Below, piece by piece: positions 2,950-13,572 of a stretch of 20,429 bases of DNA (position 1 is its first letter; every line of letters begins with the position of its first letter). Location: the IMG/VR virus record IMGVR_UViG_3300045988_007995, positions 1 to 20,429 of that record, one strand, 5' to 3'. Made by a program: the position numbers and the translations under genes. This DNA comes from a virus. Lineage: Duplodnaviria; Heunggongvirae; Uroviricota; Caudoviricetes. The notes under the pieces are model-generated. The model saw nothing but the letters and a program-made list of their open reading frames with translations. It did no database searches and was not told where the DNA came from.

Positions 2950-3090
2950 ATGCAATATGCCATTGCAGGGTGGCCTGTTGCTGGCTGCCCTTCCGAATCT
3001 TTACTTGAACGAATCACCCGTAAATTACGTGACGGATGGAAACGCCTTATCGACATACTTAATCAGCCAGGAGTCCCAAAGAATGGATAA
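2950..3090 (+). CDS. cIII: CIII (FtsH/HflB inhibitor), truncated to 46 aa relative to lambda
   Basis: ATG at 2950 after AAGGAG; product MQYAIAGWPVAGCPSESLLERITRKLRDGWKRLIDILNQPGVPKNG matches my recollection of the first 46 residues of lambda CIII (54 aa); TAA at 3088-3090 where lambda continues. Confidence 0.8.
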   Translation: MQYAIAGWPVAGCPSESLLERITRKLRDGWKRLIDILNQPGVPKNG

Positions 3091-7272: not shown

Positions 7273-7546
7273 CCTGCAACTTGCCGTTAAAGGTGAATAC
7301 TTCGATGCCATGATTCGCGGAGAGAAAACGGAAGAGTATCGCCTGTGTAATGACTACTGGAATAAGCGAATTATGTTCCGCGAGTATGACCGCCTGATTA
7401 TCACAAAGGGATATCCGAAGCGCGACGATTCCAGCCGCAGAATTGACGTCCCGTATGACGGATATGAAATCAAGACAATCACACATCCGCACTTCGGCGA
7501 TAAGCCGGCAAAGGTGTTCGCGATAAAGGTGAATATTGATGGCTAA
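7265..7546 (+). CDS. small PUA-like (ASCH/DUF3850-type) protein, tentative
   Basis: GTG at 7265 preceded by AGGAGG (7251-7256); 93 aa; YFDAMIRGEKTEEYR pattern reminiscent of ASCH/DUF3850 proteins (recollection only). Confidence 0.4.
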   Translation: MANLQLAVKGEYFDAMIRGEKTEEYRLCNDYWNKRIMFREYDRLIITKGYPKRDDSSRRIDVPYDGYEIKTITHPHFGDKPAKVFAIKVNIDG

Positions 7547-7841
7547 ATCAGCAGCAGAGCGCAAAGCCGCTCAGAGAGCCAGACAAGCTGCATCTGGTGT
7601 GCGTAAGCTGGAAATTGTGCTTGATGCTCAGGAAATTGAAATGCTGGAGCGTAACTGTGCCACGCGTCGCCCCGGGCGTGCGCCTTACGAATTTGGTGAG
7701 TATATAGCGTTACTGATCCGCCAGGATGATGCACGCGTGCACGGGCGTATAAAATCGATCAGCAGAAACGTTGCGGTAAGTGCGGCGAGAGAGTTCCCGT
7801 TAATTCATGCCCGTGTAATGGTGACTCGGAATGCTGGGTGA
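7539..7841 (+). CDS. hypothetical basic protein (100 aa), last gene before the packaging module
   Basis: ATG at 7539 after AAGGTG, overlapping previous stop; Arg/Ala-rich N-terminus; no HNH or other motif seen. Confidence 0.5.
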   Translation: MAKSAAERKAAQRARQAASGVRKLEIVLDAQEIEMLERNCATRRPGRAPYEFGEYIALLIRQDDARVHGRIKSISRNVAVSAAREFPLIHARVMVTRNAG

Positions 7842-7871: not shown

Positions 7872-7885
7872 CGTGACATGTCACG
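7872..7885. repeat. perfect palindrome CGTGACATGTCACG (copy 1 of 3 of the GTGACATGTCAC core)
   Basis: Exact dyad symmetry read directly; same 12-bp core recurs at 10138-10149 and 10531-10542. Confidence 0.9.
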
Positions 7886-7925
7886 AGTAGATTATGCATG
7901 ATGAATTTGATGGGTTTTGAATACT

Positions 7926-7951
7926 GCCGCCAACTATGGCGGCTTTATTTT
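7926..7951 (+). terminator. intrinsic terminator between the early operon and terS
   Basis: Hairpin GCCGCC-aactat-GGCGGC (7926-7943) followed by TTTATTTT. Confidence 0.7.
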
Positions 7952-7958
7952 GCATGGT

Positions 7959-7987
7959 ACTATTACCACAACGGTAACTATTACCAC
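7959..7987 (+). repeat. two exact 11-bp direct repeats ACTATTACCAC immediately upstream of the terS start
   Basis: Copies at 7959-7969 and 7977-7987 (18-bp period), ending 8 nt before the predicted terS ATG. Confidence 0.85.
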
Positions 7988-7994
7988 GGTGGTT

Positions 7995-8591
7995 ATGATG
8001 CCTGCTGAACCTAAAACCTATAAACGCAAATCAACGCAATTTAAGCCACTAACAGCAATGCAGGAGGCTTATTGCCAGTCATACATCAAAACGCCTGAAA
8101 ACCAGACTCAGGCAGCGATTAACGCAGGATTCTCCCCAAATACAGCGGCAGTTAAAGCCAGTCTCATGATGCGCGATGAACGCATTCAAAAACGGATTGC
8201 CGAGCTGATGGAAGAGCGCAACAAACGAATGCGCGTCAGTGCTGATTACGTTCTCATGCGCCTGGTGGAGATCGACCAGATGGACGTGATCGACATCCTC
8301 AACGACGATGGGAGCCTTAAGCCAATCCGCGAGTGGCCGAAAATCTGGCGCACTACGCTTAGTGGCTTTGATCTGTCATCGACCATCATGAACATGAACG
8401 AGGATTCGATAGAGACAATCCTCAAAAAAATTAAATGGCCTGACAAGGTGAAGAACCTCGAACTGATTGGTAAGCACGTCGACGTCAACGCATTCAAAGA
8501 ACGCCTGGATGTTAATGTGAATGTGACAATTGCTGATCGCATAGCGGCAGCCAGGAAGAGACTGAAAGAACGTCAGGATGGCAATCAGTGA
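7995..8591 (+). CDS. terS: terminase small subunit (P27-family-like)
   Basis: Located immediately upstream of and overlapping (GTGA) the large terminase gene; start placed at ATG 7995 (MMPAEPKTYKRK...) because the ORF-track extension from 7917 spans the terminator and direct repeats. Confidence 0.65.
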   Translation: MMPAEPKTYKRKSTQFKPLTAMQEAYCQSYIKTPENQTQAAINAGFSPNTAAVKASLMMRDERIQKRIAELMEERNKRMRVSADYVLMRLVEIDQMDVIDILNDDGSLKPIREWPKIWRTTLSGFDLSSTIMNMNEDSIETILKKIKWPDKVKNLELIGKHVDVNAFKERLDVNVNVTIADRIAAARKRLKERQDGNQ

Positions 8592-10063
8592 CAGATACAG
8601 CGTTATCTCCTGAAGAGCAGTTAATCGAGGATATTGCAGGGTTCACTCACGATCCGCTTGGCTATGCCCTCTATGCGTTCCCATGGGGGGAAGAGGGGAC
8701 TGAACTGGCACATGCCACCGGCCCACGTCAGTGGCAGGCTGATGCGTTCCGAGAGATACGTGATCACCTGCAGAATCCAGAGACGCGCTATCAGCCGCTT
8801 ATGCTGGCACGCGCTTCTGGTCACGGTATTGGTAAATCCGCATTCATCTCAATGCTGATCAACTGGGGCATGTCCACTTGCGAGGATTGTAAGGTCGTGG
8901 TGACCGCCAACACCGACAACCAGCTACGAACGAAGACCTGGCCGGAAATTATCAAGTGGTCGAACCTTGCTATCACGAAAGACTGGTTTACCTGTACCGC
9001 TACCGCGATGTACAGCAATGACCTAGGGCACGACAAGCGGTGGCGGGCTGACGCAATACCCTGGTCTGAGCACAACACCGAGGCATTCGCCGGACTACAC
9101 AACGAGCGCAAACGCATCATCGTGGTGTTTGATGAAGCGTCGAACATTGCGGATCTGGTGTGGGAAGTTGCCGAGGGTGCGCTTACGGACGAAGACACTG
9201 AGATTATTTGGGTGGCGTTCGGAAACCCTACACGTAACACCGGGCGTTTTCGCGAATGTTTCCGCAAATATAAACACCGCTGGAAAACTGCGCAGATTGA
9301 CAGCCGGACGGTGGAAGGCACTAACAAACAGCAGTTGCAGAAATGGGTTGATGACTACGGGGAAGACAGCGACTTCGTTAAAATCCGTGTGCGTGGCATA
9401 TTCCCTGATGCATCTGAATTGCAGTTTATCCCTACCGGTCTTACTGACGAGGCAATGAAACGGGTGGTAACCGCTGCGCAGGTTGCACATGCTCCGGTGA
9501 TAATCGGCGTTGACCCGGCATACTCCGGCGTTGATGACGCTGTGATATACCTGCGGCAGGGGCTACACAGTAAGGTGCTGTGGACTGGCAACAAGACTAC
9601 CGACGATCTGATTATGGCGAAGCGTATCGCTGACTTTGAAGACCAGTATCAGGCTGACGCGGTGTTCATCGACTTCGGTTACGGAACCGGTTTGAAGTCA
9701 ATCGGTGACGGCTGGGGTCGTACATGGCAACTTGTTCCGTTCGGTGGCGCGTCTACTGACCCGCAGATGCTCAACAAGCGTGGGGAGATGTTCAATTCAT
9801 GCAAGACATGGCTGAGGCTGGGCGGCATGCTGGATGACCAGGAAACAGCAGACGACCTGTCGGCGGCAGAGTACAAAGTTCGAGTGGACGGTAAAATCGT
9901 TATCGAACCGAAGGAAGATATCAAGGAGCGGCTTGGGCGTTCACCGGGTAAAGGCGATGCGCTACTGCTGACGTTTGCGTTCCCTGTGTCTAAGCGTCTG
10001 CGAATTCCCGGTCAGCAGAACCAGCAAGGCAAGGCCATCACAGATTACGATCCCTATGCTTAA
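8588..10063 (+). CDS. terL: terminase large subunit
   Basis: 491-aa ORF; GTG start overlapping terS stop; ATPase-like segment ...IIVVFDEASNI... (Walker B-like) and overall size and position typical of phage TerL. Confidence 0.85.
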   Translation: MTDTALSPEEQLIEDIAGFTHDPLGYALYAFPWGEEGTELAHATGPRQWQADAFREIRDHLQNPETRYQPLMLARASGHGIGKSAFISMLINWGMSTCEDCKVVVTANTDNQLRTKTWPEIIKWSNLAITKDWFTCTATAMYSNDLGHDKRWRADAIPWSEHNTEAFAGLHNERKRIIVVFDEASNIADLVWEVAEGALTDEDTEIIWVAFGNPTRNTGRFRECFRKYKHRWKTAQIDSRTVEGTNKQQLQKWVDDYGEDSDFVKIRVRGIFPDASELQFIPTGLTDEAMKRVVTAAQVAHAPVIIGVDPAYSGVDDAVIYLRQGLHSKVLWTGNKTTDDLIMAKRIADFEDQYQADAVFIDFGYGTGLKSIGDGWGRTWQLVPFGGASTDPQMLNKRGEMFNSCKTWLRLGGMLDDQETADDLSAAEYKVRVDGKIVIEPKEDIKERLGRSPGKGDALLLTFAFPVSKRLRIPGQQNQQGKAITDYDPYA

Positions 10064-10104: not shown

Positions 10105-10133
10105 ATAAAACAAAGCCAGCTCATAGGCTGGCT
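10105..10133 (-). terminator. minus-strand intrinsic terminator downstream of the opposite-strand gene pair
   Basis: Hairpin AGCCAGC-ctatga-GCTGGCT followed on the minus strand by TTGTTTTAT; protects terL from antisense read-through. Confidence 0.5.
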
Positions 10134-10137
10134 GTTT

Positions 10138-10149
10138 GTGACATGTCAC
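10138..10149. repeat. palindrome GTGACATGTCAC (copy 2), 4 nt downstream of the gene A stop codon
   Basis: Exact 12-bp palindrome; flanking context CTGtTTGTGACATGTCACGGtGTTA nearly identical to copy 3. Confidence 0.9.
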
Positions 10150-10153
10150 GGTG

Positions 10154-10486
10154 TTATTTCGGTAGATTGTGTTTGGCATTCGACTCGTCTATCACGTAAC
10201 GCATTGCAGTTCGACCGAGATTACCAGGATCTTCATGCAGACTCACTCGTGCCTTTAGGAGCACACATTCAGCCTTGACATAGTTTGCTGGAATTATTCC
10301 TACCTCGGCATTTTTAAATGCCTCCTTCACCGCCTCACCGTTGTACTGACCGCCAAGCAACTCTGTACATGTCAGGTTGTTATGGATAATTGCAAGGAGA
10401 TCTTTAATCTCTTCACGCAGGTTTACAATCGCCATCGCGGCATTGATAGCTGCGGCATAGCGCTCAGCTGCAGTCTTCTCTTTCAT
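10154..10486 (-). CDS. hypothetical 110-aa protein (opposite-strand insert gene A)
   Basis: Minus-strand ORF; start placed at MKEKTAAERY... (ATG complement at 10484-10486) preceded by AAGGTGA; the only long ORF in this interval on either strand. Confidence 0.55.
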   Translation of the reverse strand: MKEKTAAERYAAAINAAMAIVNLREEIKDLLAIIHNNLTCTELLGGQYNGEAVKEAFKNAEVGIIPANYVKAECVLLKARVSLHEDPGNLGRTAMRYVIDESNAKHNLPK

Positions 10487-10498
10487 GATTTTCACCTT

Positions 10499-10525
10499 AA
10501 AAAAATGCCCGGCGAATCGGCGGGC
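10499..10525 (-). promoter_or_regulatory. conserved hairpin plus T7 tract directly upstream of gene A RBS (copy 1 of duplicated 5' element)
   Basis: Minus strand reads GCCCGCCGATTCGCCGGGCATTTTTTTAAGGTGAAAATCATG; terminator-like stem GCCCG/CGGGC then U-tract, immediately followed by the RBS. Confidence 0.5.
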
Positions 10526-10530
10526 TGATT

Positions 10531-10542
10531 GTGACATGTCAC
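10531..10542. repeat. palindrome GTGACATGTCAC (copy 3), 4 nt downstream of the gene B stop codon
   Basis: Exact 12-bp palindrome in context CTGaTTGTGACATGTCACGGcGTTA. Confidence 0.9.
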
Positions 10543-10546
10543 GGCG

Positions 10547-10969
10547 TTAGAAGGTTATTTTATCGAATGCGGCGTTGATTGCCTTGGCGTCCTGCTCAGC
10601 ACCAACCACATCAAGTAAAGATCTTTTACTAAGCACTTCAGCCAGGCATTGTAACTTCATGTTGTATAAGTTTTCGCGCATGTAATCATCATCACTTTTT
10701 TCTTTGGCGTATACAGCGCGAGAAATATCAAACACATTGCCTTTTTCCATTTCAGTTTTCTGCGCTGAAATCCAGTCATGGCAAGTAACTCCTATTCCAT
10801 GGTCATCGCTAAGCGTTAACCCGGCAAGTCGCTCACCTGGAATTGCTTCACAAAGCATTTCATTTCCTGCAAAAACACCATAAAAAATTGAGTCATCACC
10901 CTGAACAATGCGTACATATTTGCACGGCCATTCATTTAGATATTTAGCTAGCATGTCGGCTGTTTTCAT
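10547..10969 (-). CDS. hypothetical 140-aa protein (opposite-strand insert gene B)
   Basis: Minus-strand ORF; start placed at MKTADMLAKY... (ATG complement at 10967-10969) preceded by TAGGTGA; upstream ORF-track extension crosses the hairpin/T-tract and is rejected. Confidence 0.55.
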   Translation of the reverse strand: MKTADMLAKYLNEWPCKYVRIVQGDDSIFYGVFAGNEMLCEAIPGERLAGLTLSDDHGIGVTCHDWISAQKTEMEKGNVFDISRAVYAKEKSDDDYMRENLYNMKLQCLAEVLSKRSLLDVVGAEQDAKAINAAFDKITF

Positions 10970-10979
10970 GATCTCACCT

Positions 10980-11005
10980 AAAAAAAATGCCCGGCGAATC
11001 GGGCG
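10980..11005 (-). promoter_or_regulatory. conserved hairpin plus T8 tract directly upstream of gene B RBS (copy 2 of duplicated 5' element)
   Basis: Minus strand reads CGCCCGATTCGCCGGGCATTTTTTTTAGGTGAGATCATG; about 40 nt alignable with copy 1. Confidence 0.5.
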
Positions 11006-11045
11006 AACTGGAAGCAATGAGTTATGCCTTCCGTGGCTGTACTGG

Positions 11046-11085
11046 TTTACAGCATGAAGCCATCGCAATGGCGTCATGCTGTAAA
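11046..11085. repeat. 40-bp near-perfect nested palindrome
   Basis: TTTACAGCATGA-aGCCATcgcaATGGCg-TCATGCTGTAAA: 12-bp outer arms with a 5-bp inner dyad. Confidence 0.85.
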
Positions 11086-11124
11086 AAGGGCGGTGATAGT
11101 CCTTCAAGGGAAACCATCACCGCC
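11083..11124 (-). terminator. minus-strand terminator 43 nt downstream of the tRNA
   Basis: 9-bp stem GGCGGTGAT/ATCACCGCC with 18-nt loop, followed on the minus strand by CTTTTT. Confidence 0.5.
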
Positions 11125-11167: not shown

Positions 11168-11244
11168 TGGCGTGGCATGCAGGATTCGAACCTGCGACCA
11201 ACCGCTTAGAAAGCGGTTGCTCTGTCCAGCTGAGCTAATGCCAC
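11168..11244 (-). tRNA. tRNA-Arg (anticodon UCU), phage-encoded
   Basis: 77-nt cloverleaf on the minus strand: acceptor GTGGCAT/ATGCCAC, D-stem GCTC/GAGC, anticodon stem ACCGC/GCGGT with loop TT-TCT-AA, T-stem GCAGG/CCTGC with TTCGAAT loop, discriminator G and encoded CCA. Confidence 0.85.
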
Positions 11245-11671
11245 AACGCTGAGAGCACTTAGCCTGTTAAGGCGCCACACTTTGTCGCGGCTCCATAAAT
11301 GCTCTCATCGTTGTACCCTCGTCTCTTCCGAGGCGTCACACCGAATCGCCGGGATGGTGAATCCCCGTGCGCGGAATAAAACCGCTCGACTTGCACATTC
11401 CGGCTACCTGGTTCGTTTGCCACAGCCAGGGAGGGTGCCCCTTAAACGTATCCAGACCGCTATCGGCGCATGTGCCATACGCCGTACTGCTCAAAATAAA
11501 AGCTCACTCCACCTGTTCAATTTAACGACAAGCCAGTCAGGTTAGTAACCGGAATGAACTCTTTGGTTACCTGAAAGGTAATAATTTGTGCGTTAAATGT
11601 CAACTACCTACGATAAATAAATCATATGTGGTTAAATTGGTAATAATTTAATTGCGTACGGAGTCATTGAT

Positions 11672-11892: not shown

Positions 11893-13572
11893 ATGGCGGA
11901 AACAACTAAAGAGCGATTGAACAAACAGTTCGCACAACTTGAAAGCGAGCGTCAGTCGTTCGAGCCGCACTGGCGCGAGTTGAGTGATTACATCAACCCG
12001 CGTGGTTCCCGCTTTCTGACTTCTGAGGTCAACCGTAACGATCGACGCAATACACGCATTATTGATTCGACCGGGACTATGGCGGCGCGCACTCTCGCCA
12101 GCGGCATGATGTCAGGCATCACAAGCCCCGCGCGTCCGTGGTTTCGCCTGGCTACGCCAGATCCTGAAATGATGGATTATGGCCCTGTTAAGTTGTGGCT
12201 TGAGGCGGTGCAGAACCGCATGAACGATATGTTCAATAAGTCGAATCTCTATCAGTCGCTGCCGCAGTTATACGGAAGCCTCGGCACATACAGCACTGGT
12301 GCAATGGCAGTGCTGGAGGATGACGAGGACATCATTCGCACAATGCCATTCCCGATAGGCAGTTACTACCTGGCTAACTCACCTCGTGGCAGTGTGGACA
12401 CCTGTTTTCGCAAGTTCTCTATGACTGTTCGTCAGCTTGTTCAGGAGTTCGGGCTAAATAACGTCAGCGAATCCGTAAAAAGCATGTGGGAAAGCGGAAC
12501 CTACGAGAAGTGGATTGAAGTGATGCATTCGGTTTACCCGAACATTGACCGCGATACATCGAAGCTGGATAGCAAGAACAAGCCATTCAAATCGGTTTAT
12601 TACGAGGTTGGTGGCGATAACGACAAGTTGTTGCGTGAGTCCGGATTCGATGAGTTTCCAATTATGGCTCCGCGCTGGGAAGTTAACGGCGAAGATGTTT
12701 ATGGATCATCATGCCCGGGTATGCTGGCGCTTGGACCTGTTAAGGCATTGCAGCTTCTCCAGAAGCGCAAGTCGCAGTTGATTGATAAAGCCACCAATCC
12801 GCCGATGGTTGCTCCGACTTCCCTCAAGAATCAGCGTGCCTCCCTTCTTCCTGGCGACATCACGTATATCGATCAGATTACTGGTCAGGATGGTTTCAGG
12901 CCTGCTTATCTGGTTAACCCCAGTACAGCAGATTTGGTGGCAGACATTCAGGACACCCGTCAAATCATTAACAGCGCCTACTTTGTCGATCTGTTCATGA
13001 TGTTGCAGAACATCAATACCCGCTCGATGCCTGTTGAAGCGGTGATCGAAATGAAAGAAGAAAAACTTCTGATGTTGGGGCCGGTTCTGGAGCGTCTGAA
13101 CGACGAATGTCTTAATCCTCTCATTGACCGCGCTTTCTCGATGATGGTGCGTAAAAACATGCTGCCGCCACCGCCTGACGCGATGGAAGGTATGCCCCTG
13201 AAGGTCGAATACATTTCCGTCATGGCTCAGGCGCAGAAGTCTATCGGCCTGTCCAGTCTGGCGTCTACGGTCAACTTCATTGGTCAACTTGCGCAAGCGA
13301 AACCAGAAGCTCTCGACAAACTCAACGTTGATCAGGCGATCGATGCATTCGCTGATATGTCCGGAGTGTCTCCAACCGTCATTGTTCCGCAGGAACAGGT
13401 TGAGCAGGCTCGCCAGCAACGGGCACAGCAACAACAGCAGCAACAAATGATGGCGATGGGGATGGCGGCGGCACAGGGTGCCAAGACGCTAAGCGAAGCT
13501 AAAACTTCGGATCCGAGTGTTTTGTCAGCTATGGCGAATGCAGTTAGTGGTCAGGGTGGGCAATCACAATGA
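11893..13572 (+). CDS. portal (head-to-tail connector) protein, T7 gp8-like
   Basis: 559-aa ORF following terL; C-terminal Q/A/M-rich tract (QQRAQQQQQQQMMAMGMAAAQGAK) resembles the T7 connector C-terminus as I recall it. Confidence 0.8.
   Translation: MAETTKERLNKQFAQLESERQSFEPHWRELSDYINPRGSRFLTSEVNRNDRRNTRIIDSTGTMAARTLASGMMSGITSPARPWFRLATPDPEMMDYGPVKLWLEAVQNRMNDMFNKSNLYQSLPQLYGSLGTYSTGAMAVLEDDEDIIRTMPFPIGSYYLANSPRGSVDTCFRKFSMTVRQLVQEFGLNNVSESVKSMWESGTYEKWIEVMHSVYPNIDRDTSKLDSKNKPFKSVYYEVGGDNDKLLRESGFDEFPIMAPRWEVNGEDVYGSSCPGMLALGPVKALQLLQKRKSQLIDKATNPPMVAPTSLKNQRASLLPGDITYIDQITGQDGFRPAYLVNPSTADLVADIQDTRQIINSAYFVDLFMMLQNINTRSMPVEAVIEMKEEKLLMLGPVLERLNDECLNPLIDRAFSMMVRKNMLPPPPDAMEGMPLKVEYISVMAQAQKSIGLSSLASTVNFIGQLAQAKPEALDKLNVDQAIDAFADMSGVSPTVIVPQEQVEQARQQRAQQQQQQQMMAMGMAAAQGAKTLSEAKTSDPSVLSAMANAVSGQGGQSQ

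Follow-up and report, generated by a model that had tools for sequence, protein, structure and literature searches.

A repeated terminator-like hairpin and Shine-Dalgarno element as the probable border of a putative counter-defence cassette slot in a Uetakevirus prophage

Between the genes of the large terminase subunit (terL) and the portal protein, the viral record IMGVR_UViG_3300045988_007995 harbors two small genes on the minus strand, called A and B here, each of which is preceded by nearly the same stretch of about 40 nucleotides (nt) comprising a hairpin, a T-run, a Shine-Dalgarno (SD) sequence and the start codon. What is this element, and why does it stand there twice? The DNA under study, positions 1 to 20,429 of the record (20,429 nt, hereafter the window), is a Uetakevirus (epsilon15/phiV10-like) prophage. 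With a probability of about 0.65, we regard the element as a composite border, in which the intrinsic terminator ending the upstream unit (or the preceding cassette) is fused to the fixed SD sequence of a counter-defence slot, the tandem having been formed by a crossover within the hairpin.

On the minus strand, copy 1 of the element is composed of the hairpin GCCCGATTCGCCGGGC (11004-10989), an A (10988), a T8 tract (10987-10980), AGGTGA (10979-10974) and the ATG at 10969-10967. Copy 2 contains the hairpin GCCCGCCGATTCGCCGGGC (10525-10507), an A (10506), a T7 tract (10505-10499), AAGGTGA (10498-10492) and the ATG at 10486-10484. The stretches 11005-10964 and 10523-10481 have 22 identical bases, AGGTGA and ATGAAA in common, and a repeat search revealed a direct repeat of 29 nt (10492-10520 and 10974-11002) with 97% identity. 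The exactly identical core is CCGATTCGCCGGGCATTTTTTT (22 nt), followed by a T in copy 1 and an A in copy 2, while the spacers in front of the ATG read GATC and AAATC, respectively. The consensus string given in an initial annotation of this DNA was essentially right, albeit slightly idealised. A search with a 24-nt pattern gave just these two sites in the window, with 0.00 expected (100 shuffles). There is practically no chance that both regions merely possess a good SD sequence and a T-rich tract. AGGTGA is a common SD sequence, and this is the one point in favor of such a coincidence, but the 22 identical bases reside upstream of it, two sites were found against 0.00 expected, and more than 100 related phages have this sequence at the corresponding place. 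The near-identity ahead of both starts and a likeness exceeding the ribosome binding site (RBS), both put forward in the initial annotation, were thus confirmed.

The minus-strand island carrying the element is enclosed by plus-strand genes, namely terS and terL on one side and the portal gene, beginning at 11893, on the other. From the promoter through a non-coding stretch of about 320 nt down to the terminator shared with terL, its features succeed one another on the minus strand as follows; terL and a third palindrome are appended.

11575-11603, minus strand: putative promoter, read from the sequence, with the -35 region TTGACA (11603-11598), a 17-nt spacer and the -10-like TACCTT (11580-11575)
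11567-11581, either strand: TTACC-N5-GGTAA palindrome resembling a repressor operator, overlapping the -10 region of the promoter
11245-11566, minus strand: conserved structured non-coding RNA between promoter and tRNA (RNAalifold consensus)
11168-11244, minus strand: tRNA-Arg, anticodon UCU (ARAGORN; Rfam tRNA, 71 bits)
11089-11124, minus strand: first terminator-like hairpin after the tRNA, 14-bp stem and CTTTTT (terminator scan; -22.8 kcal/mol, z = -5.75)
11046-11085, minus strand: second long hairpin, 18-nt arms with 94% complementarity (inverted-repeat search), present in the fold
10974-11004, minus strand: copy 1 of the 5' element, with hairpin, A, T8 and SD sequence AGGTGA
10547-10969, minus strand: gene A, 140 amino acids (aa), phrog_4846
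10531-10542, either strand: palindrome GTGACATGTCAC, 4 nt past the stop codon of gene A
10492-10525, minus strand: copy 2 of the 5' element, with hybrid hairpin, A, T7 and SD sequence AAGGTGA
10154-10486, minus strand: gene B, 110 aa, phrog_27507
10138-10149, either strand: palindrome GTGACATGTCAC, 4 nt past the stop codon of gene B
10114-10133, either strand: bidirectional terminator hairpin common with the convergent terL (terminator scan; -12.1 kcal/mol; annotated as terminator in phiV10)
8588-10063, plus strand: terminase large subunit gene terL (PAS61/phiV10 annotation), conserved right flank of the slot and anchor for 109 slots
7873-7884, either strand: third GTGACATGTCAC, at the 3' end of a gp55-like regulator gene and followed by a terminator hairpin at 7926-7951

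The same layout was found in phiV10, PAS61 and HEMP4, but their slot contains a single gene, which encodes a PF13876 protein in phiV10 and a homologue of gene A in PAS61 and HEMP4.

Both copies exhibit the anatomy of an intrinsic terminator, a GC-rich stem-loop with an immediate U-run, and both are located at the 3' end of a unit on the same strand: copy 1 behind the structured RNA and tRNA-Arg, copy 2 at a distance of 21 nt from the stop codon of gene A. The consensus of the relatives (GCCCGG-UUCG-CCGGGC, A, U7, AAGGTGA) forms a GC stem of 6 bp closed by a UUCG loop, with a folding energy of -12.9 kcal/mol. In copy 1 the stem has 5 bp and is followed by U8 (-10.2 kcal/mol); in copy 2 an interrupted stem of 7 bp with an internal mismatch precedes U7 (-10.4 kcal/mol). 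The terminator scan called copy 1.

A search for the element in related genomes, suggested in the initial annotation, was carried out by scanning viral contigs with the right hairpin arm plus T7. It yielded 120 loci on 120 viral contigs, and in 109 of them terL was located downstream. Hairpin and T7 were present in all of the 109 slots, while the sequence following the T-run differed widely among the 120 contigs. In a second sample, which was collected via terL and is therefore unbiased towards the hairpin sequence, the position of the hairpin was kept in Klebsiella, Citrobacter, Pseudocitrobacter, Scandinavium, Buttiauxella, Rahnella and other genera. Its stem occurred in compensatory variants (GCCCGG/CCGGGC, GCCCAC/GTGGGC, GCCTCC/GGGGGC and GCCCGC/GCGGGC). 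Among 13 variants, a small sample, 91% of the cells were paired versus 19-62% in controls with slid partners, and two of the six stem pairs changed on both sides, i.e. structure and not sequence is conserved. The terminator anatomy which the initial annotation had proposed, hairpin plus T-run, was hence encountered in every related slot examined, with compensatory changes in the stem. By these comparisons, hairpin and T-run are a part of the conserved backbone and under selection for structure, as a terminator ending the upstream RNA unit should be.

The conserved stem could alternatively act in the mRNA, the 5' stem-loop shielding the processed cassette transcript from RNase E and the U-run serving as an S1-binding translation enhancer. 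Such a role would suit the U-run, which adjoins the SD sequence without any gap in 84 slots, the upstream tRNA, which implies processing of a long precursor by RNase P and RNase E, and the very stable C(UUCG)G tetraloop of the consensus hairpin. However, the anatomy is that of a textbook intrinsic terminator. Moreover, hairpin and T-run are kept in a slot lacking any cassette (L121) and in front of genes possessing their own promoter, so that their conservation is independent of a downstream SD sequence. We give the mRNA role a slim chance as the explanation of the element; it and a terminator role are not mutually exclusive.

According to the composite-border reading, the terminator part of copy 1 would end the unit made up of promoter, structured RNA and tRNA-Arg, and that of copy 2 would end gene A; here the anatomy is observed and the activity predicted. 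The AAGGTGA adjacent to the U-run would be the fixed SD sequence of an exchange slot for single open reading frames (ORFs) between the RNA unit and terL. The initial annotation had ascribed one element to each gene. It does stand in front of both, but it probably is the terminator of the upstream unit joined to the SD sequence of the slot rather than a possession of the gene.

The slot has nucleotide-precise borders. In 84 of the 109 slots, hereafter the RBS type, AAGGTGA or a close variant follows the T-run with a gap of 0 nt, as it also does in the window, and the ATG lies 9-16 nt past the T-run. The frame of this type reads T-run, AAGGTGA, N3-9, ATG, the ORF, stop codon, N4, GTGACATGTCAC and a terminator in one of two versions, CAGCCAGCCGATGAGCTGGCTTTGTTTT or AGCCCGCCGATGCGCGGGCTTTTTT. 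In 20 slots a gene with its own promoter, including a TTACC-N5-GGTA motif and TATAAT, is situated directly after the T-run. One slot (L121) is empty, its T-run being followed immediately by all that is left of the palindrome, the right half; cassette remnants of eight codons occur as well. The ORFs of the slot fall into 19 clusters and belong to at least 15 unrelated families enclosed by the same 5' and 3' borders. The suggestion that the element is a cassette-boundary signal agrees with this, and so does the view of each gene as a modular cassette, since the frame of stop codon, 4 nt, GTGACATGTCAC and terminator recurs in the relatives.

Some peculiarities of single occupants may be mentioned. 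The promoter-bearing genes (L024, L004, L008, L031, L131, L132, L136 etc.) encode proteins of about 250-280 aa with N-terminal membrane segments and a long coiled coil, lack the palindrome, and may be defence or exclusion genes; in L097 a gene of this type lies downstream of an Acb4 cassette. In L147 (Pseudescherichia vulneris) the RBS-type frame contains a protein similar to HNH homing endonucleases (PF13392), and a search of this locus up to about 2.2 kb from terL did not reveal the palindrome.

The palindrome at the 3' border, whose presence behind both genes had been pointed out before, is real: GTGACATGTCAC, a perfect palindrome of 12 bp, occurs in three exact copies in the window (7873-7884, 10138-10149 and 10531-10542) against 0.00 expected. 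It resides at the 3' ends of genes, each time upstream of a terminator hairpin. Its distance from the stop codon was exactly 4 nt in 74 of 77 cassettes representing 11 families, while the stop codon and the 4 nt themselves vary. In the copy at the gp55-like gene, the stop codon is located inside the palindrome, and this copy was conserved in all enterobacterial relatives examined, even where the downstream DNA differs. The genome of phiV10 (L125) has copies at 2262, 19493 and 39101, one of which follows gp21. The string was not found in the literature. GTGACATGTCAC may be bound by a protein or serve as a signal in the RNA or in recombination. The possibility that it marks a physical genome end (pac or cos) was rejected; the phiV10 record, which begins inside the palindrome, was arbitrarily cut where its last gene has the stop codon. 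In some relatives (L126, L129 and L133, at about position 3000), a LexA-box-like TACTGT-N8-ACAGTA and another insert come after the palindrome at the gp55-like gene, in place of the terminator/terS arrangement.

Borders of this precision raise the question of a site-specific cassette system, integron-like or driven by a nuclease, in which the palindrome and the hairpin/SD border would be recombination sites and the repeated element their product. ORF-precise borders in at least 11 unrelated families, the 74 of 77 cassettes with the stop-N4-palindrome arrangement, the empty slot with the right palindrome half right after the T-run, the eight-codon remnants, and the palindromes marking the 3' ends of two other genome modules are all in line with such a system. 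Against it stand the absence of a recombinase or nuclease gene from the slot, the lack of a bipartite, imperfect attC structure in the palindrome, the Acb4 genes that elsewhere do without these flanks (see below), and the fact that on either side the flanks merge without a break into the conserved backbone. Furthermore, the junction lies in the hairpin loop in one of two independent tandems and in the T-run in the other, a pattern typical of short-homology crossover. We consider a site-specific system very unlikely.

The junction of the window tandem argues for a composite border formed by crossover. Where gene A occurs as a single cassette with an identical protein (L115, L186-L193), it is followed by TAACGCC-GTGACATGTCAC-AATCA-GCCCGCCGATTCGCGGGC-TTTTTT adjoining the stop codon of terL. 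Gene B, again with an identical protein, occurs as a single cassette behind GCCCGGTTCGTCCGGGC-A-T7-AAGGTGAAAATC (L176-L185), and in a Pseudocitrobacter relative (L129) behind GCCCACTTCGGTGGGC-A-T7-AAGGTGAAAATC. Both single-gene parent types are common. In the window the junction reads AATCA-GCCCGCCGATTCGC, then CGGGC-A-T7-AAGGTGAAAATC-ATG. The left part of copy 2 is identical to GCCCGCCGATTCGCGGGC, the usual 3' terminator of gene A, and its right part, including T7 and AAGGTGAAAATC, to the border in front of the single-cassette gene B. As the left side corresponds to the gene A terminator up to the loop and the right side to the slot border of gene B, the crossover should have taken place inside the hairpin. 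One parent would have contributed gene A with its terminator GCCCGCCGATTCGCGGGC-T6, the other the slot hairpin, T7 and AAGGTGAAAATC ahead of gene B. Unequal crossover between them in the common TTCGC, or in CCGATTCGC if the partner had a G-to-A variant, would have produced the hybrid hairpin of copy 2 and hence the tandem. We infer that the tandem originated in this way from two single-cassette phages. The duplication claimed in the initial annotation is real in that there are two copies, but copy 2 is a recombinant hairpin, one half of which stems from the 3' terminator of gene A and the other from the slot border. Two lineage-specific substitutions set copy 1 apart from the usual border, G to A in the stem and A to T behind the T-run. 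The G-to-A change, which gives the 22-nt identity with copy 2, may be due to later gene conversion between the copies.

An independent tandem was identified in L124 (E. coli UID2309220026). It combines gene A with an Acb4 gene, and in this case the terminator of gene A is intact and AAGGTGA follows its T-run. As the breakpoints differ but lie in similar short sequences, crossover at short homologies is indicated rather than site-specific insertion, and the RecE/RecT fusion of these phages, annotated in phiV10, could promote such an exchange. About 10% of the complete E. coli genomes carry the region, and none of the 518 region-carrying genomes covered at least 80% of the window tandem. Among the contigs read for both proteins, only L192 contained it, with 1300 of 1300 positions identical.

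To which kind of genes does the slot belong? Families of known sponges account for 52 of 93 slot ORFs, comprising PF13876 (Acb4) with 46, PF11195 (Tad2) with five and PF24729 (Acb2/Tad1) with one member. PF13876, the commonest occupant, is the Acb4 family of sponges acting against the cyclic-oligonucleotide-based antiphage signalling system (bioRxiv 10.1101/2024.12.30.630793; 10.1101/2025.07.12.664507). Judged by these family assignments, more than half of the occupants are nucleotide-signal sponges and the slot is therefore a counter-defence hotspot: at one position between conserved genes, differing genes are found (109 slots, 19 ORF clusters), among them members of families with demonstrated anti-defence activity (Acb4, Tad2, Acb2/Tad1).

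In the strict promoter scan, no sigma-70-like site was obtained on either strand between 9800 and 12000, and hence none between the tRNA and either ATG. The promoter at 11575-11603 was located by eye and by conservation, TTGAC(A/C/G)-N17-TACCTT being conserved in relatives of several genera; the strict scan missed it because its -10 region matches in just three of six positions. The palindrome TTACC-N5-GGTAA is present twice in the window (0.04 expected), upstream of terS at 7963-7977 and over the -10 region at 11567-11581. The phiV10 genome has eight copies (87, 3252, 20497, 31953, 32015, 32727, 35070 and 35132), of which three flank the gene of a CI-like repressor. Other phiV10 sites are located near the antirepressor region and after the replication genes, and the promoter-bearing slot genes also possess the motif. 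It probably is the operator of the phage repressor, spread over many transcription units. The near-consensus -35 promoter would then be under the control of this repressor. With the operator-like palindrome lying over its -10 region, the RNA/tRNA unit is probably kept off in the lysogen and becomes active upon infection or induction, as would suit anti-defence genes.

As no promoter was found nearer to the cassettes, their dependence on read-through or antitermination follows by elimination. Polymerases starting at 11575-11603 would have to pass the hairpins, and each hairpin with its U-run would set the amount of transcript reaching the respective cassette. After read-through, the stem would stay as a 5' structure and the U-run as a U-rich tract ahead of the SD sequence. 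Intrinsic terminators between an upstream unit and downstream genes are not unusual. Internal attenuating terminators in operons, e.g. between rplL and rpoB in E. coli, gate downstream genes after a highly expressed unit. In the case of the cis-acting antiterminator RNAs put of HK022 and EAR (exopolysaccharide-associated RNA) of Bacillus, a structured RNA located after the promoter enables the polymerase to read through. The arrangement in the window resembles these systems, as far as can be told from the sequence, but its RNA has no sequence or Rfam similarity to put or EAR.

A structured RNA does stand between promoter and terminators in the window. RNAalifold on 22 representatives (at most 93% identity) predicted several helices with compensatory pairs. 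In Rfam, the region gave just the tRNA at E-values up to 1, and six relatives had no match at the gathering threshold. The leader of about 300 nt looks like a so far undescribed structured RNA of Uetakevirus-like prophages. In its closing helix, eight of 17 pairs show compensatory changes, as do pairs of other helices (window 11245-11566; L126-L134, L147, L154), and a GCACAU/AUGUGC pseudoknot is possible. In other genera (L127, L128, L129, L133, L134, L147), one to three modules of 100-200 nt replace the tRNA-Arg (window 11168-11244). They are closed by GUUGUGGUG and CACCACAAC and contain a T-arm-like GGTTCGA(C/T)TCC. ARAGORN called no tRNA or tmRNA in these modules, which may be tRNA-like elements or tRNAs with large insertions.

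One might suppose that the terminators are efficient and that the cassettes are expressed only if the RNA polymerase has been made terminator-resistant, either in cis by the structured RNA after the manner of put or EAR, or by a phage protein such as the Cys-rich gp55-like regulator. A covarying RNA of about 300 nt belonging to no known family lies directly behind the promoter and ahead of all terminators, up to three hairpins, two of them with U-runs, precede the first promoterless cassette, and each cassette ends in a terminator which the next one must pass. Slot genes with their own promoter are likewise compatible with strong termination of ordinary polymerase. Nevertheless, we hold regulated read-through to be unlikely. 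In addition to the missing similarity of the RNA to put, EAR or any other Rfam family, a fold of 141 nt did not disclose an alternative antiterminator pairing involving the hairpin, and no N- or Q-like protein was identified, although the search was not systematic. Phages of the PAS61 type have a 32-nt deletion just upstream of the hairpin and an unchanged cassette. Finally, the RNA contains a tRNA or tRNA-like modules in several genera and may be a plain stable-RNA gene. Quite unlikely, too, is a joint reading of the island as a single counter-defence module with two undescribed parts. In it the RNA, including its tRNA or tRNA-like modules, would be transcribed first and serve in cis as a processive antiterminator, the palindrome exactly 4 nt past each stop codon would form with the terminator/SD border a signal for swapping whole ORFs to the nucleotide, and immunity by nucleotide signalling would have new inhibitors in genes A and B. 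If it were true, only polymerases from the operator-carrying promoter would cross the terminator preceding every cassette.

Several points weigh against the composite border that we prefer. The activity of the terminators and the read-through across them are predicted from anatomy and conservation. Two terminator-like hairpins (11124-11089 and 11004-10989) precede the first cassette, so that simple leakage may yield little transcript, though sponges are expected to need high expression. The 20 slot genes with their own promoter hint at an efficient terminator as well. Homology-driven exchange covers the swapping among Uetakeviruses, but not the presence of 11 unrelated families exactly 4 nt from the palindrome. 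Outside this phage group, both AAGGTGA and the palindrome are missing around the Acb4 homologues of Akira, mEpX1 and MK54, by which the idea that the flanks travel with the gene was rejected. As the commonest border of gene B has TTCGTCCGGGC and not TTCGCCGGGC, the exact crossover point is not unique. Moreover, genes A and B lack detectable similarity to any known anti-defence protein.

How the slot relates to systems already described was examined as well. In the hyperplastic regions of T4-like phages, variable ORFs that are not essential are bordered by promoter-early stem-loops (PeSLs), short conserved regulatory motifs which include a terminator stem-loop, and recombination between their copies leads to insertion, deletion or replacement of ORFs (Arbiol et al. 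2010, PMC2839356; Comeau et al. 2014, PMC4122927). Of the mechanisms described, PeSL-mediated modular shuffling is the closest. In both systems conserved terminator-containing motifs flank swappable ORFs, and in the slot too they enclose variable genes (at least 15 families) reshuffled by recombination, as indicated by the hybrid junctions in the window and in L124. A PeSL, however, joins a strong sigma-70 promoter to the stem-loop and thus provides each ORF with a promoter, whereas the motif of the slot is composed of terminator and SD sequence and is promoterless; no sigma-70-like site was found from the hairpin to the ATG. Unlike PeSL regions, the slot has a 12-bp palindrome on its 3' side, and it is a single one in temperate podoviruses, while T4-like phages possess many hyperplastic regions.

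Hotspots of anti-defence or anti-signalling genes have been reported in N4-like phages (bioRxiv 10.64898/2026.06.04.730250), in P2/P4 (PMC9122126) and in the iLund4u survey (bioRxiv 10.1101/2024.10.15.618418). The slot shares with them the fixed position between conserved genes and the varying small genes, including Acb4 and Tad2 sponges. It differs by its location between terL and a tRNA/structured-RNA gene, by its usually single ORF and by its nucleotide-precise borders. A literature search did not yield a description of this Uetakevirus slot. It is a new instance of an anti-defence hotspot with an unusually exact frame, and the repeated element is probably a recombination scar at the border of this counter-defence cassette slot.

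According to the summaries in PMC3573123 and bioRxiv 10.1101/2024.10.15.618418 of the definition by Juhala et al. 2000 and Cumby et al. 2012, morons are extra non-essential genes between conserved late genes, on the opposite strand and with their own terminator. The slot cassettes, too, are extra genes on the opposite strand that end in a terminator and lie between conserved genes, and their occupancy varies, L121 being empty. As summarised there, a promoter of its own and expression from the prophage characterise the classical moron, while the RBS-type cassettes are promoterless and situated behind a promoter with an operator-like site. A promoter of their own is lacking in genes A and B and the other RBS-type slots (84) but present in 20 others, and only these 20 fit the definition. 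To integrons the slot bears a resemblance in that promoterless single ORFs stand in tandem behind one promoter, with a palindromic element just past the stop codon. It lacks IntI, though, its palindrome is a perfect 12-mer and not an attC site, and the tandem junctions differ between arrays; the phage integrase is of the P4 type and encoded elsewhere than at the slot.

The dN/dS ratios (non-synonymous to synonymous substitution rates) amounted to 0.18-0.21 for gene A and 0.05 for gene B (versus L129), which shows that both genes are real and under purifying selection. Neither had a match in Pfam, NCBIfam, PADLOC or the PDB sequences, and tblastn with gene B against phage records remained without a match. 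An hhalign comparison of the gene A family with the cassette protein containing the Acb2/Tad1 hairpin was negative. The AlphaFold model of gene A (pLDDT, predicted local distance difference test, 77) displays a small N-terminal alpha/beta part and a C-terminal helical hairpin, and a structural search with it gave no informative neighbour; the model of gene B (pLDDT 50) was too poor for use. The C-terminal helical hairpin of gene A (about 45 aa, ENLYNMKLQCL to AEAINAAFDKITF; window 10547-10969) is common to proteins of 61-65 aa, proteins of 123 aa and longer fusions, whose N-terminal parts are quite different or missing (L021, L063, L091, L039, L047, L105, L154). Since this hairpin is combined with different N-terminal parts, the slot proteins are domain mosaics themselves.

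By their location in the slot only, genes A and B are candidate immune inhibitors. The fixed position of a hotspot makes the location usable for nominating new inhibitors, and as this one frame already houses three known sponge families, its uncharacterised occupants, genes A and B along with some ten other families, are strong candidates that can be tested cheaply. The slot is sharply bounded and occurs in widespread prophages of E. coli, Salmonella and Klebsiella. How conserved terminators serve as recombination handles, by which accessory genes are swapped and stacked, is clearly illustrated in nature by the hybrid hairpin, so that the PeSL idea, conceived for T4-like phages, can be applied to temperate podoviruses as well. 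The slot also poses a puzzle of expression, as promoterless genes expected to be needed early and in quantity stand behind one to three terminators.

Two observations concern genes outside the island. The gp55-like gene (7536-7841, phrog_536, annotated as 'transcriptional regulator') has a deletion of 1 nt in an A-run compared to phiV10, AGAAAACG being changed to AGAAACG. The resulting frameshift deletes the Cys-rich C-terminal part and reflects either a defective prophage or a sequencing error. For terS, the annotated start codon TTG at 7917, as in phiV10, would place the hairpin 7926-7951 and the operator-like palindrome inside the coding region. The in-frame ATG at 7995, preceded by GGTGG, is the more plausible start (window 7917-8000).

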